Below are positions 20,011-64,000 of a stretch of DNA of 64,000 nucleotides, one piece after another (position 1 is the first letter of the stretch; each line of letters begins with the position of its first letter). The position numbers were made by a program, and so were the translations under genes. Under the pieces are notes generated by a model. The model worked only from the letters and a program-made list of their open reading frames with translations. It did no database searches and was not told the DNA's origin. Origin of the DNA: a virus (lineage: Duplodnaviria; Caudoviricetes); IMG/VR virus record IMGVR_UViG_3300025413_001239. One strand, 5' to 3'.

Positions 20011-22354
20011 GATAAGTATATCACCGTATTCAAAAATTAAGGTTCAATGGTCTGATAGACCTGAAAACTATAGTAAAGAAGGTAAAAATAAAATAAAAAA
20101 TCACTTTGCTAAGAAGTATGGGTTAAATAAAAATAATATTGATGTTATTTATAATCCTGTTAAGTTTAATGAATCTGGTGATGCAATTGAAATAACTGGT
20201 GCAAACATTGAGAATATCATGGACACAACTTATCAACGTGAGTTGATGAAAGAGTGGCTTAAACGTGAAAATAAAACTATTGATTTTAATAGGATATTGA
20301 ATCTTGATGATAAAGTTAATGGTGAGTTAAACCTTGATGATACCAGCACTCGACATAACACTTGGTCCATCAAGTGGCTTATGATTAACAACTTCTTATC
20401 TTTTGGTGAAGAAAATTATGTTCCCTTTAACAAGTTAAGGGGTTTAACGGTTGTTAATTCAATCCCATCAAATACTGGTGGAAAAACTTCATTAACTATT
20501 GATTCATTAAAGTTCTTACTACACGGTAACACAACCAAAACAGATAAGAATGAAGAAATCTTTAATACCTATTCTGATAAGAATGACCTTGTTGTTAGGG
20601 GTATGATAGAAATTGGTGGTGAAGAAATCATTATCGAAAGAAAAATGAAAAGAACCGCTAAAAAAGGTGGTGGGTGGACCGTAACCAATAGGGTTAATTA
20701 CTATGAGTTGTTACCAGATGGTGAGGAAAAGGCTCTTAATGAAGAGGATGCAACTAGAACAACAGCAAAATTAAGAGCTACTATTGGTAGTGAAAAGGAT
20801 TTTGAAATGCTTGTATTAGCAACTGAGAAAAATTTGGATGACCTTATTGGCTTAACAACAACTGAAAGTGGTAAAGTACTTACTAGACTTATCGGTCTTG
20901 AGGTTATTGAAATGAAAGAAGCTGTTGTTAGGAAGATGTATAATGAATTTGATAAAAAGAAAAAATCAAATGAACATGATGTTATTACATTAAATGATGA
21001 TATTAACGAACACCTTCAAAAAATTGAAATTTGTGAGGGTATTAAAGAAACATTAACCAATAGACATCAAGAAACGCTAGATAAGATTGAAAGCTTACGA
21101 ACTGAAAATGATAGACTTTTAAATAGTAAGATTACTGTTGATGTTGTCATAAGCGCATTAAACCCATCAAAACTTCAAAATGAGGTTGACCAAATAACTG
21201 AGTCTGGTAAAACTATTAAATCTAAAGCGGATGATTTAAAAAATAGAATTAATGAGATTGGTAATCCAGACTTTGATGAAGATTATTATCATAAGTTAAC
21301 ACTTGAAAGAAATAAGGTACTTATTGACTTAGGTTTAAAAAAAGGTGAAATTACTAGGTTAGAGAATAATATTAAGAATCTAATTGATGGTGGTATTTGT
21401 AAGTCATGTAATCGTAAACTTGATGATGTTGACAACACAGAACACATAGAAGCACATAAGAAATCAATTGAAGATTTAACGATTGTTGTCAATGAGTTAT
21501 TATCTAAAGAAACGGTTGTTAAGGATGAGTTATCTGGGATGGTTGAAGTTAAGACTTTAGTTGATACTAAAATTAAACTTGAACTTGAAAAAGATAGGGC
21601 TGAAGTTGAGGTTGGTTCATTGAGAAATAAGGTTGTTGATAAGATGAATGACCTTAAAAAGTATAAGCTTAATGAACAAGCTATTGAATTTAATAGGAGT
21701 GTTGATGCTGAGGTATCAATGGTTAAAACCAACATTCAAGTTGAAGAAAAAACAAGAGATGATATTTTCTCTAAATTAGAGAAAATTAAGCAAGACATTA
21801 ATCTTAACATCCAATCAATCGATGCTAAAAACAAATTAATAGAACAAATTAAGAAAGAAGAAGAAATTGATAAAATATTTAAGGTTTATATTGAACTATT
21901 TGGTAAAAAAGGCATTAGCAAGTTAGTACTTAGGTCAGTGTTACCAATTATAAATTCTGAGGTTGCAAGGCTTCTTGAGGATGTTTGTGAATTTGAGGTT
22001 GAAATATTTATTGATGATAAGAACGATGTACAATTCTTATTAATTAAAGATGGTGTGTCCAAATTGCTTAAATCTGGTAGTGGGTTTGAAAAGACAGCAG
22101 CTAGTTTAGCGTTAAGAGGTGTTTTAGGTAAGATATCAACATTACCAATGCCTAATTTTATAACGTTTGATGAGATTTTAGGTAAAGTTGCTAATGAAAA
22201 CATTGACAAGTTAAAGCCACTATTTGACAAGATATCAAATATGTATGAGATAGTATTTTTAATTACACATAACGATATAATTAAGGATTGGGCCACTAAA
22301 ATTCTAACAGTTATTAAAGAAGGCAACATATCAAAGGTTAATTTATTAAAGTAA
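20000..22354 (+). CDS. sbcC: SbcC/Rad50-like SMC ATPase
   Basis: Walker A-like NTGGKTS, CKSC zinc hook, SGSGFEK signature, FDE Walker B, ITH. Confidence 0.9.
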   Translation: MENKISISPYSKIKVQWSDRPENYSKEGKNKIKNHFAKKYGLNKNNIDVIYNPVKFNESGDAIEITGANIENIMDTTYQRELMKEWLKRENKTIDFNRILNLDDKVNGELNLDDTSTRHNTWSIKWLMINNFLSFGEENYVPFNKLRGLTVVNSIPSNTGGKTSLTIDSLKFLLHGNTTKTDKNEEIFNTYSDKNDLVVRGMIEIGGEEIIIERKMKRTAKKGGGWTVTNRVNYYELLPDGEEKALNEEDATRTTAKLRATIGSEKDFEMLVLATEKNLDDLIGLTTTESGKVLTRLIGLEVIEMKEAVVRKMYNEFDKKKKSNEHDVITLNDDINEHLQKIEICEGIKETLTNRHQETLDKIESLRTENDRLLNSKITVDVVISALNPSKLQNEVDQITESGKTIKSKADDLKNRINEIGNPDFDEDYYHKLTLERNKVLIDLGLKKGEITRLENNIKNLIDGGICKSCNRKLDDVDNTEHIEAHKKSIEDLTIVVNELLSKETVVKDELSGMVEVKTLVDTKIKLELEKDRAEVEVGSLRNKVVDKMNDLKKYKLNEQAIEFNRSVDAEVSMVKTNIQVEEKTRDDIFSKLEKIKQDINLNIQSIDAKNKLIEQIKKEEEIDKIFKVYIELFGKKGISKLVLRSVLPIINSEVARLLEDVCEFEVEIFIDDKNDVQFLLIKDGVSKLLKSGSGFEKTAASLALRGVLGKISTLPMPNFITFDEILGKVANENIDKLKPLFDKISNMYEIVFLITHNDIIKDWATKILTVIKEGNISKVNLLK

Positions 22355-41747: not shown

Positions 41748-41760
41748 AAAATATTTTTAA

Positions 41761-41800
41761 AAAAACTTGACAAATTAAAAAACTTTTCGTATATTTGCAT
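41761..41800 (+). promoter_or_regulatory. Repeated strong promoter cassette of the RNA operons
   Basis: AAAAACTTGACAA(A)TT(A/C)AAAAACTTTTCGTATATTTGCA near-identical at 41761, 43268 and 62401. Confidence 0.75.
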
Positions 41801-41842
41801 ATAATTATTAAAGTAGTTCTTATACATAAAAATATTTCTAGA

Positions 41843-42015
41843 AAAATGGTTACGGCAACGTAAAAAAAAAATTCTACTATTGAAGGGGCTTGGCCACTCC
41901 CACGTCACCATTTATGGTGGATAAAAGCTGAAAAGTAAGTGGCACCTGTTATGATGGCAGTTTAAATCTAATCCTTGTAGTGGTAGCAAGCCAAAATAAC
42001 ACAAAAACCATTTTG
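41843..42015 (+). ncRNA. Structured ncRNA element B
   Basis: AAAATGGTT/AACCATTTT outer stem, TACGGCAA motif, inner stems CTACTA..AAGG/CCTT..TGGTAG, GCCACT/AGTGGC, CACCAT/ATGGTG. Confidence 0.6.
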
Positions 42016-42027
42016 AGAAACTTATTA

Positions 42028-42089
42028 AAGAATCAGTTCAGCAAATTAAACAATTTTTTTATCTGAAACAAAAAAACAAAATGATTCTG
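42028..42089 (+). ncRNA. Structured ncRNA element C
   Basis: AGAATCA/TGATTCT stem, TTCAGCAA motif, T7-ATCTGAAAC-A7 hairpin. Confidence 0.65.
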
Positions 42090-42094
42090 AAATT

Positions 42095-42168
42095 TACGTC
42101 ATTGGTGTAATGAGCACGTGCCCCCACATGGGGGGGGTTTAGACCAGTATCAAATCTGGATGACGTAC
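42095..42168 (+). tRNA. Degenerate tRNA-like gene (anticodon unassignable)
   Basis: TACGTCA/TGACGTA acceptor, D- and T-arm-like hairpins, C5/G8 anticodon arm not canonical. Confidence 0.5.
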
Positions 42169-42169
42169 T

Positions 42170-42206
42170 TGCGAGGTGGAGCAGTAGTAGCTCGCTAGGC
42201 CCGTAA
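42170..42206 (+). pseudogene. 5' half of an initiator-type tRNA-Met
   Basis: TGCGAGGTGGAGCAGTAGTAGCTCG resembles the fMet 5' half; no T-arm follows. Confidence 0.6.
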
Positions 42207-42213
42207 AATACAT

Positions 42214-42285
42214 TGCGCTGTAGAGAAGTAGTATCTCGCAAGCCTCATAAGCTTGAAATCATTGGTGCAAATCCAATCGGCGCAT
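42214..42285 (+). tRNA. tRNA-Met (CAT)
   Basis: Full cloverleaf; CAAGC-CTCATAA-GCTTG; T-loop TGCAAAT. Confidence 0.85.
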
Positions 42286-42290
42286 CATAT

Positions 42291-61181: not shown

Positions 61182-61432
61182 GAATAATATATATAGATAA
61201 ATCGTTACAATGTGATACAACACATGATAATATTCAATTAATTGATGGTAAAATATATCATTGGTGTGTTAAAACAGAAATGTTAAAACATAATGAAACA
61301 TTGCAGTTATTCTTAAAACGAAAAACAGCTTATGTGAATTTAAAAAAACCAGAAATTAATACTATATTAATTTATGATGTGGTACCAATTGAATCAGCCT
61401 TAATGGTAAGGTATGCTTTAATTACTACTTAA
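61178..61432 (+). CDS. Hypothetical protein
   Basis: 84 aa, overlaps previous stop. Confidence 0.5.
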   Translation: MRIIYIDKSLQCDTTHDNIQLIDGKIYHWCVKTEMLKHNETLQLFLKRKTAYVNLKKPEINTILIYDVVPIESALMVRYALITT

Positions 61433-61751
61433 AAAATGGGTTATCTCGCAATAAGAGTTCGATGGTTTCATCGAGCTTTTTGCATGTTTGTTGGAACCCA
61501 ATTACTTCTTCATCACTTAACCTAAAGAATTCATTCTTTGCAAGCGTTTGTTTATAGTTGTATTTTGCGTGAAGCATTGCTTCAACTTTCTTATAGTTTT
61601 TAGATTCATAAGTATTAAGAATTGAAAGCTTATTCGAATTTCCAGTTTGCAAATTCTTAAGTCTTTGTTCTGCTGGATTCTTTGAAACACCAATCTTATG
61701 CGCTTCATCGCCATTCTTGTCCACCTCTAATATCAAGTATACATAACCCAT
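61425..61751 (-). CDS. T5orf172/MUG113 GIY-YIG-like protein
   Basis: YVYLI..HKIGVSKN..RLKNLQTGN..VEAMLH..EFF. Confidence 0.75.
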   Translation of the reverse strand: MGYVYLILEVDKNGDEAHKIGVSKNPAEQRLKNLQTGNSNKLSILNTYESKNYKKVEAMLHAKYNYKQTLAKNEFFRLSDEEVIGFQQTCKKLDETIELLLRDNPFFK

Positions 61752-61796: not shown

Positions 61797-62384
61797 ATGA
61801 GAAAATTAATAAAAAAACTCTTAAGGGAAAATTTGTATGAAGCTATCACACAAAAACCAATGTTTGCTAGAGGTGTTGAACATCAAATTTATTTATCAAA
61901 GTCAGACCCAAATATAGTCTTTAAAGTTGGATACCCTAAATCTGTTGATAGATTCGTATCGGTGTTTACATCTAATCCTGAGTATTTTCCAAAAATTTTT
62001 AAAGTTGGTAATTTAACATGGCAGGGTAAACCATTTAAATATGCTAAAATTGAAAGACTAAATACTGAAAGAGTCATTAGTGAGTGGAATTATATTACTG
62101 GTAAATTAGATGAAGTTGGTATATTAGATACTGACTCAAATTTATTAGAAGATGTTAGCGATATTTTTAAATCGGCCATAACTGAAGATTCAGAATATGA
62201 AACGTATATTACATCTAAACTACAACAGCATGATAAAAAAGCCTACAAGTTATTCATAGATTGGCTTAATTTTTTACATCATGTAAATTCGATAGTTGAA
62301 CCAGTAAAACATAAAATTCTTGATATTCATAAGTATAATTTTGGTTATGATTCCAGTGGTAAAATGAAGTGTTTAGACATATAA
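61797..62384 (+). CDS. Protein-kinase-like fold protein
   Basis: ARGVEHQIY, VFKVG, LDIHKYNFG, CLDI. Confidence 0.55.
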   Translation: MRKLIKKLLRENLYEAITQKPMFARGVEHQIYLSKSDPNIVFKVGYPKSVDRFVSVFTSNPEYFPKIFKVGNLTWQGKPFKYAKIERLNTERVISEWNYITGKLDEVGILDTDSNLLEDVSDIFKSAITEDSEYETYITSKLQQHDKKAYKLFIDWLNFLHHVNSIVEPVKHKILDIHKYNFGYDSSGKMKCLDI

Positions 62385-62473
62385 AAAAATATTTTTAAAA
62401 AAAAACTTGACAATTCAAAAACTTTTCGTATATTTGCAGTATATTTATTAAAAGAGATTAAAAGATAACAAAA

Positions 62474-62554
62474 ATGAGAAATTTAAACAACATATTGGTC
62501 CTTGTGTTATGTGTGCTAGTGTTAACTAGTTCTACTGGGTATTCCATGTTTTAA
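62474..62554 (+). promoter_or_regulatory. Leader peptide 2 (26 aa, Leu/Val/Cys) of a putative attenuator
   Basis: MRNLNNILVLVLCVLVLTSSTGYSMF between promoter (62429) and terminator; antiterminator AGTTCTACTGGGT inside the leader. Confidence 0.75.
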
Positions 62555-62578
62555 ATTTAACATTTAAAAATAATTGAG

Positions 62579-62609
62579 AAGCTCAGTCCGAAAGAACTGA
62601 GCTTTTTTT
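62579..62609 (+). terminator. Attenuator terminator 2
   Basis: AAGCTCAGT-CCGAAAGA-ACTGAGCTT plus T run. Confidence 0.85.
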
Positions 62610-62611
62610 AT

Positions 62612-62683
62612 GTGCCTTTGTCCGAGCGGTTTAGGTAGAGTTCTGCAAAAGCTCTTACGGCGGTTCAAATCCGTCAAGGCACT
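62612..62683 (+). tRNA. tRNA-Cys (GCA)
   Basis: GTGCCTT/AAGGCAC, U73; GAGTT-CTGCAAA-AGCTC. Confidence 0.9.
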
Positions 62684-62910
62684 CTTTAAAATTAAAAACA
62701 ATGGAAAAAAAATGACATCAAAAAAGCATTGTATAAGGAAAAGCCATTAGCCACCTTATCACATTATGAAGAAGGATGGAATTGGCATAACCGAAACCTA
62801 CCCAACCATAAGTGGAGAGAGTATAAGAGTTGGAAGTATAATAGAAAAACTAAGTGGAAATGAAAAAGAGATTTGATGCCTTGTAACACTCTAATGTGTA
62901 ACAATGCAAA

Positions 62911-63180
62911 ATGAAAAAAATGAACAAGAAGCTGTATGATAGAACAGTTGACAACAAAACGTACAAGTTATGCCATTATCAACAAGAAAATATTTGTTGT
63001 TTAAGATGTGCGAAAAGAAGAAGAAGAAATTATTTTTATTATGACTATGACGGTGGGAAACATTGTTATCCAAGTTGGAAATTAGTAAGTAAAAATAAGA
63101 AGCAATGGATGCCAAAAAAACTTAAGATTGAGGAAGAAAAACCCAATCGTTGGTATAGTAGAGGTGACATTACTTGGTAA
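62911..63180 (+). CDS. Small basic protein (CxxC, SWK..QW motif)
   Basis: CCLRC, YPSWKLVSKNKKQW. Confidence 0.55.
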   Translation: MKKMNKKLYDRTVDNKTYKLCHYQQENICCLRCAKRRRRNYFYYDYDGGKHCYPSWKLVSKNKKQWMPKKLKIEEEKPNRWYSRGDITW

Positions 63181-63276
63181 TTGCGACATCAAGACATATT
63201 AAAGTGTCGTGATAGGTTTAAAAGTTACAAATTGTTGCAATAATTGCGACATTTCACCAGATAAATGGTGAAATAT

Positions 63277-63361
63277 GGGGGTGTGGTGGAATGGTAGACA
63301 CGCAGGTCTTAAAAACCTGTGGACCGTAAGGTCCGTGTGAGTTCGACTCTCATTGCCCCTA
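63277..63361 (+). tRNA. tRNA-Leu (TAA)
   Basis: CAGGT-CTTAAAA-ACCTG, long variable arm, A73. Confidence 0.9.
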
Positions 63362-63376
63362 CACAACTGTGTTTCT

Positions 63377-63470
63377 GATAGGGTTGCTCAGTAGGAGCTC
63401 CAGTAAACCTTATCCGTTGATGAATAGTGGTCATGACATGAGTTCATTTTTCTGGTACGACAATCCAGAA
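63377..63470 (+). ncRNA. Three-hairpin intergenic RNA of unknown class
   Basis: GATAGGGTT/AACCTTATC, ATGAA/TTCAT, TTCTGG/CCAGAA. Confidence 0.4.
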
Positions 63471-63473
63471 TAC

Positions 63474-63561
63474 GGCCCTATGAGCAAATTGGTAAAGCTT
63501 GCGGTCTAAGAAACCGTGGAAAACATTAGAAACGTTCTCAGTTCAAATCTGAGTAGGGCTA
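63474..63561 (+). tRNA. tRNA-Leu (AAG)
   Basis: GGCCCTA/TAGGGCT, GCGGT-CTAAGAA-ACCGT, long variable region, A73. Confidence 0.8.
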
Positions 63562-63563
63562 CT

Positions 63564-63785
63564 ATGAGTTTTAATTTTGATGAAAAGAAAATTGGTGATA
63601 TAGTTCAGATGACGGATTATTTTATAAGTATAAATCCTAGTGAACATATTCAGGAATTTAAAGATTGTGAAGGCGAAGTTATTGGTTATAGTGATGAAGG
63701 TTATACTGATTACTTAGATGTTAGATGGCAACCTAGTGGGTTAAGATATGGTTATCATTGGGTACATTTAAAACTAGTCCAATAA
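63564..63785 (+). CDS. Hypothetical protein
   Basis: Start re-called to MSFNFD just after the tRNA. Confidence 0.55.
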   Translation: MSFNFDEKKIGDIVQMTDYFISINPSEHIQEFKDCEGEVIGYSDEGYTDYLDVRWQPSGLRYGYHWVHLKLVQ

Positions 63786-63958
63786 TGGCTAAAAAAGTAT
63801 CAAAAGAAGTTCAGATTAAACATTCTGAGGATTATGTTGAATTTCTAATTAAGCGGTTAAATTCTAACAACTATAAGTTAGCAGCAACTAAGGAAGAGTA
63901 TGCGGCAACTAAAGCTAAATTAGATAAAGAGCGATTGATACTTAAGTTGTTAAAATAA
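63785..63958 (+). CDS. Small basic hypothetical protein
   Basis: Start re-called to MAKKVSK. Confidence 0.55.
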   Translation: MAKKVSKEVQIKHSEDYVEFLIKRLNSNNYKLAATKEEYAATKAKLDKERLILKLLK

Positions 63959-63959
63959 T

Positions 63960-64000
63960 GGGGGTATGCTGGAAATGGTATACAGCTACGGTTTAGACCC
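63960..64000 (+). tRNA. tRNA-Leu (TAG), truncated by window end
   Basis: GGGGGTA, CTG-GAAATGGTATA-CAG, TTTAGAC loop. Confidence 0.75.

Follow-up and report, generated by a model that had tools for sequence, protein, structure and literature searches.

A putative leader-peptide attenuator ahead of a Cys/Leu tRNA operon in a lake-water phage

The locus and the sequences compared

The 64,000-nucleotide (nt) stretch of DNA analysed here, referred to as the window, belongs to a virus of the Caudoviricetes (IMG/VR record IMGVR_UViG_3300025413_001239) and carries, close to its end, an operon of Cys and Leu tRNA genes. Ahead of the first tRNA gene lie a promoter cassette, a 26-codon open reading frame (ORF) rich in Leu, Val and Cys codons, and an intrinsic terminator (Table 1). 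This layout led us to propose that a ribosome-mediated (leader-peptide) transcription attenuator gates the operon, a reading to which we assign a probability of roughly 0.7, and that the Cys and Leu tRNAs are probably made only when ribosomes read the codons of the leader slowly. The promoter cassette, the leader with its named codons, the terminator and the Cys and Leu tRNA genes had all been described in an earlier note made from the letters of this DNA, and each was recovered at the position given there; the gene for tRNA-Leu (TAG), which is cut by the end of the window, proved to be complete on contig L068.

This contig, which was located by exact protein look-up and supplied the sequence beyond position 64000, is 100% identical to the window over 12,204 bases. 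Uncultured relatives were gathered by scanning IMG/VR and a metagenome collection (JGI, ENA and TARA records among them) for the DNA pattern of the promoter, and 38 distinct cassettes were extracted from the window and these relatives. A search of IMG/VR with the adjacent protein of 195 amino acids (aa) recovered no relatives, and the window had no match in the INPHARED phage collection by megablast or tblastn.

Table 1. Features of the Cys/Leu tRNA operon and its leader region
Feature	Position	Strand	Remarks
Promoter cassette	62399-62441	+	CTTG 62406-62409, 19-nt spacer, TATATTTG 62429-62436
Leader ORF, 26 codons	62474-62554	+	encodes MRNLNNILVLVLCVLVLTSSTGYSMF; ATG at 62474
Regulatory run, codons 8-17	62495-62524	+	TTG GTC CTT GTG TTA TGT GTG CTA GTG TTA (LVLVLCVLVL)
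Region 2 (ACTGGGT), putative antiterminator 5' strand	62534-62540	+	pairs with 62581-62587; extended here, 62528-62533 with 62593-62598
Intrinsic terminator	62581-62609	+	GCTCAGT (62581-62587) pairs with ACTGAGC (62596-62602); T7 at 62603-62609
tRNA-Cys (GCA)	62612-62684	+	starts 2 nt after the T run
Small ORF	62713-62863	+	by eye, reads like the front of one relatives' ORF fused to the back of another
ORF, 89 aa	62911-63180	+	inside the array; DNA 81-89% identical to G001 and G002
tRNA-Leu (TAA)	63277-63362	+	
tRNA-Leu (AAG)	63474-63562	+	
tRNA-Leu (TAG), 5' part	63960-64000	+	complete on L068 (12164-12246); ends at window-equivalent 64042

Leaders of four classes spell the tRNA sets behind them

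In 33 of the 38 cassettes, a short leader ORF is followed by a canonical hairpin and a run of five to ten T, and the stop codon stands 23-31 nt before the stem where the stem is cleanly delimited; the other cases include an extra upstream hairpin. Four classes of leader can be told apart. Class A leaders draw on K, T, Y, Q, P and G and stand ahead of Pro, Gln, Tyr, Thr, Gly and Lys tRNA genes; those of class B draw on I, N, M, S, W, R and H and stand ahead of Trp, Ser, His, Ile, Met, Asn and Arg tRNA genes. Class C, to which the present leader belongs, has cores such as LVLCLCVLVL ahead of Cys, Val and Leu tRNA genes, and class D has cores such as FDFAFFAAEED ahead of Phe, Glu, Asp and Ala tRNA genes. 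The four amino-acid sets are disjoint and jointly comprise all 20 amino acids. The leader studied here had been put forward as a second, independent case of a general design, and the recurrence of promoter, codon-matched leader, terminator and tRNA genes in 33 distinct cassettes of four classes bears this out.

The enrichment was quantified for each class. The mean fraction of residues drawn from a leader's own set was 0.69 in class A, 0.77 in class B, 0.44 in class C and 0.42 in class D, against proteome backgrounds of 0.32, 0.32, 0.15 and 0.21, respectively, and the cross-set residue fractions of the leaders are low. The best 12-residue windows contain 12, 12, 10-11 and 9-12 own-set residues in classes A to D, compared with proteome maxima of 11, 10, 6 and 9. 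Where columns of the core vary, 34 of the 60 alternative residues stay within the set, with about 27% expected. Judging from these alignments, composition is what is conserved, not one particular peptide, as a codon-sampling function predicts and unlike a structural peptide.

Related IMG/VR contigs reach up to 160 kb at a CheckV completeness of 45%, and for this reason the lake-water phage is probably a jumbo phage. On the strength of the four classes, we lean towards the wider view that this and the related jumbo phages carry a complete four-channel sensor of decoding capacity, in which the 20 amino acids are split among four tRNA operons and each operon would be induced by its leader only when ribosomes slow on its codons.

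The window also contains a class B cassette (43266-43500), whose 33-codon leader (43340-43441) is rich in I, N, M, S, W, R and H and whose terminator lies at about 43466-43500; a 57-aa ORF and a Ser/His/Ile/Met/Asn/Arg tRNA array follow. The class B leader peptide is kept in seven relatives with synonymous changes, and its antiterminator is statistically weak. At 43695-43795, Rfam reports a 101-nt tRNA (53 bits) that ARAGORN missed; by eye it carries a lengthened extra arm or an insert, and its anticodon loop apparently reads CCA (Trp). Relatives have an ordinary Trp-CCA gene of 72 nt just upstream, which this phage lacks. A possible cultured example is Caulobacter phage phiCbK (L073, JX100813, 47000-53000), in which annotated rho-independent terminators directly precede three tRNA groups; the 45-aa gp083, ahead of the Pro/Lys/Leu/Ser tRNAs, has 23 of its 44 residues in the set by hand count, and the other two sites are without a convincing leader.

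The Leu/Val/Cys leader ORF

The class C leader of the window begins about 30 nt past the predicted transcription start, behind an A-rich 5' untranslated region (UTR) without a Shine-Dalgarno sequence, and is presumably translated. Its codons include TTA and GTG three times each, and TTG, CTT, CTA, TGT and GTC once each. The regulatory run samples the codons for tRNA-Leu (TAA), tRNA-Leu (AAG), tRNA-Leu (TAG) and tRNA-Cys (GCA), plus Val codons without a matching tRNA in this phage. When the relatives are included, the four Leu codons TTA, TTG, CTT and CTA correspond to downstream genes for Leu-TAA, Leu-CAA, Leu-AAG and Leu-TAG.

Ten distinct class C orthologues keep the frame at 26-27 codons, and one copy has 33 codons. 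Alignment of eight class C leaders revealed that conservation is highest across the regulatory run, synonymous sites included, whereas the sequences of the 5' UTR, the spacer and the terminator diverge. Short ORFs are frequent in AT-rich DNA, and the antiterminator of the window is not significant as a single sequence, so that one could suppose that a chance ORF happens to be flanked by a promoter and by the terminator belonging to a unit upstream. Such a coincidence is refuted in practice by the comparative data: the frame, the length, the regulatory run and the terminator spacing are kept in about ten diverged class C copies and in 33 cassettes overall, and the best 12-residue window of the leader holds 10 Leu, Val or Cys residues, compared with a maximum of 6 in about 15,000 residues of phage proteins.

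The choice of codons in the leaders is also distinctive. In nine class C leaders the Val codons are GTG, GTC or GTA, and a further copy (L043) has one GTT. In the ORFs of the phage, GTT makes up 65% of Val codons and GTG and GTC 4.5% each, and GTT never occurs in the leader of the window. The codon GGG accounts for 6.7% of Gly codons in the phage, yet it is used in all eight aligned class C leaders. Rare regulatory codons are found in the enterobacterial leu leader as well.

The encoded peptide is basic at its N-terminus, hydrophobic in its core and polar in its tail, it is conserved among relatives, and the unit has its own promoter and terminator, all of which would suit a self-contained gene for a small hydrophobic peptide (signal- or membrane-like) or for a short RNA, with the tRNAs expressed independently. 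However, the three sister classes are hydrophilic despite a common promoter, N-terminal pattern and architecture, and each of them spells its own downstream tRNA set. Substitutions preserve composition and not sequence, conservation extends to synonymous sites of the core, and the leader employs rare codons. In addition, only 2 nt separate the terminator from the tRNA-Cys gene, and no promoter lies between them. We consider a self-contained gene to be very improbable.

Terminator and putative antiterminator

The core hairpin of the terminator was calculated with ViennaRNA to have a free energy of −9.8 kcal/mol, or −16.0 kcal/mol with its A-U extensions. A consensus terminator scanner did not list 62581-62609, likely because the stem extends into the T run; the hairpin is clear in the ViennaRNA folds. 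In the class C alignment the terminator helix is 100% paired, three of its seven base pairs (bp) show compensatory changes, and none of 500 shuffles was as good.

Region 2, the putative 5' strand of an antiterminator, was compared with the terminator arm that it would pair with. The results showed that the hexamer ACTGGG, which encodes Thr-Gly, is complementary to the 5' arm CYCAGT and that the 6-bp core is paired in all eight aligned leaders. In the terminator type found in the window, a C-to-T change in the arm gives a G-U pair with ACTGGG. L030 carries a double change, so that GGCTGGG pairs with CCCAGCC, and in L063, which has an unrelated terminator, the leader sequence AGTCAGG matches the arm CCTGATT. 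Over all classes, the duplexes of leaders with their own arms came to −11.0 kcal/mol versus −8.7 kcal/mol for swapped ones, with a permutation p of 5e-5 that ignores relatedness among the sequences. Comparison of the sequences establishes the parts and their spacing, the codon-tRNA match in four independent classes, the covariation of the terminator helix, and a complementarity of region 2 and the arm that is kept in all class C copies.

A 13-bp antiterminator starting from 62528-62540 had been proposed for the window, and this claim stood in part. The pairing was returned by ViennaRNA with the 7-bp core forced, and the half formed by ACTGGG and the arm is conserved; the AGTTCT/AGAACT half is not, and 7 of the 13 pairs are kept. 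As a conserved element, the AGTTCT/AGAACT extension was rejected: it is specific to this phage and is not kept in L029 and L042, two copies with the same terminator.

To represent the transcript behind a stalled ribosome, the minimum free energy (MFE) fold was computed for nascent RNA with the ribosome at codon 12 and the RNA extending up to the terminator loop. The tail of the ORF was the partner of the 5' arm in 31 of 31 cassettes, at a position that is class-specific. For the window, the modelled MFE fold contains the pairing of ACTGGG with the 5' arm, a point on which the interpretation in the earlier note is supported. As long as the 3' arm has yet to be transcribed, the antiterminator has a predicted energy of −11.6 kcal/mol; in the full RNA the terminator conformer (−20.6 kcal/mol) is more stable than the antiterminator conformer (−17.8 kcal/mol), so the antiterminator must win kinetically, which is the usual situation.

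The spacing of the parts also fits the proposed attenuator. The gap between the last regulatory codon and region 2 measures 6-12 nt; it is 12 nt in the window, so a ribosome stalled at codons 8-16 should leave region 2 free. In eight of nine class C leaders region 2 ends 11-12 nt before the stop codon (28 nt in L063), and by this geometry a class C ribosome that has reached the stop codon should sit over part of region 2. The terminator stem of the window starts 26 nt past the leader stop, beyond the reach of the ribosome.

Proposed mechanism and points that weigh against it

In the proposed attenuator, RNA synthesis would start at a strong host-type promoter, and ribosomes would translate the 26-codon leader as RNA polymerase nears the terminator. 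When charged Leu, Val and Cys tRNAs are plentiful, the ribosome would cover ACTGGGT and reach the stop codon, the hairpin with its U7 tract would form, and transcription would end 2 nt before tRNA-Cys. When any of these tRNAs is scarce, the ribosome would stall within the regulatory run, ACTGGGT would be free to pair with the 5' arm of the terminator once that arm is made, and polymerase would pass the terminator and transcribe tRNA-Cys, the Leu tRNA genes and the intervening small ORFs. The outcome would be a negative feedback in which the output of tRNA is set by decoding demand. We infer that stalling causes readthrough, and the variable sensed would be the supply of tRNA rather than that of amino acids.

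Several observations weigh against this reading. The leader has Val codons, and the operon of this phage has no Val tRNA gene. The signal in the leader-to-arm duplexes comes from classes A and C only, and in classes B and D the pairing has a z of about +0.3 to −1.6 and thus little statistical support. For the window itself, comparison with shuffled tails gave z = −0.8 for the duplex and z = −1.5 for the nascent fold. The conserved core of the antiterminator is just 6-8 bp long, with few independent compensatory events. The distance from region 2 to the stop codon is 21-31 nt in classes A and B, which would place a terminating ribosome between regions 2 and 3 and not on region 2. A 1:2 helix is weakly indicated: RNAalifold pairs GTCC (codons 8-10) with GGG(Y) of region 2, the 3-4 pairs are few and invariant, and the helix differs from the single-sequence fold. 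Coupling of transcription and translation in the presumed Bacteroidetes host is assumed. Finally, a promoter-like site may exist upstream of tRNA-Leu (TAA), at about 63217-63250 by eye and as a weak sigma-70-like site (9/12) at 63217-63244 in a scan.

Some of these points would fit a leader that senses decoding speed through an output other than classical 2:3 antitermination, a stalled or closely trailing ribosome altering termination directly or acting on the processing or stability of the tRNA precursor. The codon-tRNA match is strong in all four classes, and this alternative would keep it while accommodating the statistically weak pairing in classes B and D, the shortness of the pairing elsewhere, and a region 2 that the terminating ribosome leaves uncovered in classes A and B. 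On the other side, in every one of the nascent folds the partner of the 5' arm is a stretch of the ORF tail whose position is conserved, leader and arm co-vary in L030 and L063, and the rare codon GGG is fixed in region 2. An output of this other kind is in our judgement unlikely, and we retain the attenuator that acts through region 2 and the terminator arm.

The Val segment missing from the operon

The earlier note had predicted that Val tRNA genes would lie beyond position 64000, and this prediction failed. On L068 the array ends with tRNA-Leu (TAG); three protein genes follow, and then, at about 68120, a separate class A cassette with its own leader and with Pro, Pro, Gln, Tyr, Thr and Gly tRNA genes. 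There is consequently no Val tRNA gene downstream in the operon, nor did the whole window and the following 8 kb yield one.

In the six relatives with enough sequence past tRNA-Cys, Val-TAC and Val-GAC genes, and sometimes a further Val-TAC gene, stand between the Cys and Leu genes. When the window was aligned with G002, only 62386-62557 and 62760-63300 aligned; 202 nt of the window (62558-62759) stand opposite 805 nt of G002 (21049-21853), and the part missing from the window holds three Val tRNA genes. The apparent fusion in the small ORF after tRNA-Cys falls at the spot that in relatives is occupied by Val-TAC, Val-GAC and, in some, another Val-TAC. Since Val tRNA genes are present in the operons of relatives and not here, the Val codons of the leader mirror the tRNAs of those operons.

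The other ORF of the array, of 89 aa, had no Pfam match. Just upstream of the operon, at 61425-61751 on the minus strand, lies a homing-endonuclease-like gene with a T5orf172/MUG113 domain, and G001 has a homologue at the same place. At the far end, L068 12247-12340 (window-equivalent about 64043-64136) contains a long hairpin, AAGATGATTT / AAAATCATCTT, around the T-arm-like sequence GGGTTCAAATCCC, followed by a T run; this tRNA-like hairpin after tRNA-Leu (TAG) may be a decayed tRNA or a terminator at the end of the operon.

Promoter cassette and genomic setting

Three copies of AAAAAAACTTGACAA are present in the window (41759, 43266 and 62399), and ACTTTTCGTATATTTGCA, the second half of the promoter, matches exactly at the same three sites, with 0.24 matches expected by chance. 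Positions 62407-62434 score 11/12 against the sigma-70 consensus. The motif CGTATATTTGCA recurs ahead of genes, usually with TTTG or TTG about 19 nt upstream, and in this bipartite form it was found 10 times on the plus strand and once on the minus strand, 7 of the 10 ending in non-coding DNA; the cassette at 41759, 43266 and 62399 is its strongest version. The promoter at 62399-62441 presumably fits the −33 TTTG / −7 TAnnTTTG type of Bacteroidetes, and because of this fit the host of the phage is presumed to be a member of the Bacteroidetes. Transcription probably starts near 62443.

The remaining five of the 38 cassettes head paired tRNA-Met genes and have neither an ORF nor a terminator. 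In the window, such a cassette heads a tRNA-Met pair at 41759-42377. Its first tRNA is preceded by about 130 nt that are conserved among five relatives, with the hairpins GGAATCA/TGATTCC, GCCCC/GGGGG and CCAG/CTGG recognised by eye, and an apparent truncated tRNA-like 5' fragment lies at about 42170-42213 in this phage. A small hairpin, GGGG and CCC separated by 3-4 nt, was also seen between the promoter and the leader start in many cassettes of all four classes (e.g. L038, L032, L005 and L063); it is absent from the class C cassette of the window, and could be a pause or stability element.

The G+C content of the window is 29.9%, and nearly all genes lie on the plus strand. Genes of phage type include those for an SbcC-like nuclease, a DNA-polymerase-like protein and a T5orf172 endonuclease, and at least 13 tRNA genes are present. 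Almost none of the neighbouring genes were annotated by Pfam and PHROGs.

Meaning of the proposed attenuator and comparison with known systems

Why phages carry tRNA genes, and how the expression of these genes is set, is a long-standing question. An attenuator ahead of each tRNA operon would mean a demand-regulated supply of tRNA, per codon family, and would extend a textbook mechanism of amino-acid biosynthesis operons to the decoding machinery. If the four-channel sensor is real, the phage could replace exactly those tRNAs that are running short, whether its AT-rich codon usage exceeds the supply of the host or host tRNAs are degraded or cut by defence nucleases, and leader-peptide attenuation would for the first time be known to act on tRNA genes. 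It is predicted that slowing one codon class would induce only the matching tRNA operon. The four leaders would then be compact natural sensors of codon-specific translation speed, reusable as reporters, and could help to ask whether host defences that target tRNA induce the replacement of tRNA by the phage.

Comparison with Rfam places the region outside the curated families. Over the whole window no T-box reached the gathering threshold, a search of 62380-62700 with matches admitted at E ≤ 10 found none either, and among the leader families searched on 62380-62700 (Leu_leader, Phe_leader, His_leader, Thr_leader and Trp_leader) only Phe_leader appeared, with 19.1 bits against a cutoff of 55 and E = 0.78. 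The earlier note had considered that the leader might be copied from a host ilv leader; it is not such a copy, and no Rfam leader matched above its cutoff. For freshwater huge phages of Bacteroidetes, a published account reports tRNA counts and hosts that lack Shine-Dalgarno sequences, and no leader-peptide control of tRNA (PMC9723584). Our full-text literature searches returned no description of leader-peptide control of tRNA genes.

Clusters of tRNA genes are present in T4, T5 and other large phages, and the array described here resembles them in that small ORFs and homing-endonuclease-like genes lie among its tRNA genes. To our knowledge, no leader-peptide attenuator is known for the tRNA clusters of large phages such as T4 and T5.

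Two cellular systems, the pheST attenuator with its pheM leader and the T-box riboswitches, tie the charging machinery to the status of tRNA. In these, as in the proposed phage system, the level at which a part of the translation apparatus is expressed depends on the state of its cognate tRNA. The pheM leader controls a synthetase, whereas the phage leader would control tRNA; a T-box binds uncharged tRNA directly, without a ribosome, and none was detected in the window.

The nearest system is that of the ilvGMEDA and ilvBN leaders, which are multivalent leader-peptide attenuators of enterobacterial branched-chain amino-acid operons; the related leu leader has rare CUA codons. The phage leader shares with these a short ORF containing a Leu and Val run, the sampling of several amino acids by one leader, rare codons, an intrinsic terminator, and a putative alternative pairing over the 5' arm of that terminator. 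It differs from them in controlling tRNA genes, not biosynthetic enzymes of cellular genomes, in adding Cys, in having a much shorter antiterminator, and in showing no sequence or Rfam similarity to them.

With the trp, his, pheA and thr attenuators, the phage system would have in common that the position of the ribosome picks between terminator and antiterminator, and regulatory codons, region 2 and terminator are arranged in a similar way. Unlike in those attenuators, the 1:2 pause hairpin is not clearly present in the phage leader, and no match reached the gathering score. A further difference is that the regulated product in the phage would be the gene of the sensed molecule itself, which would make the control a direct feedback of tRNA on its own supply.

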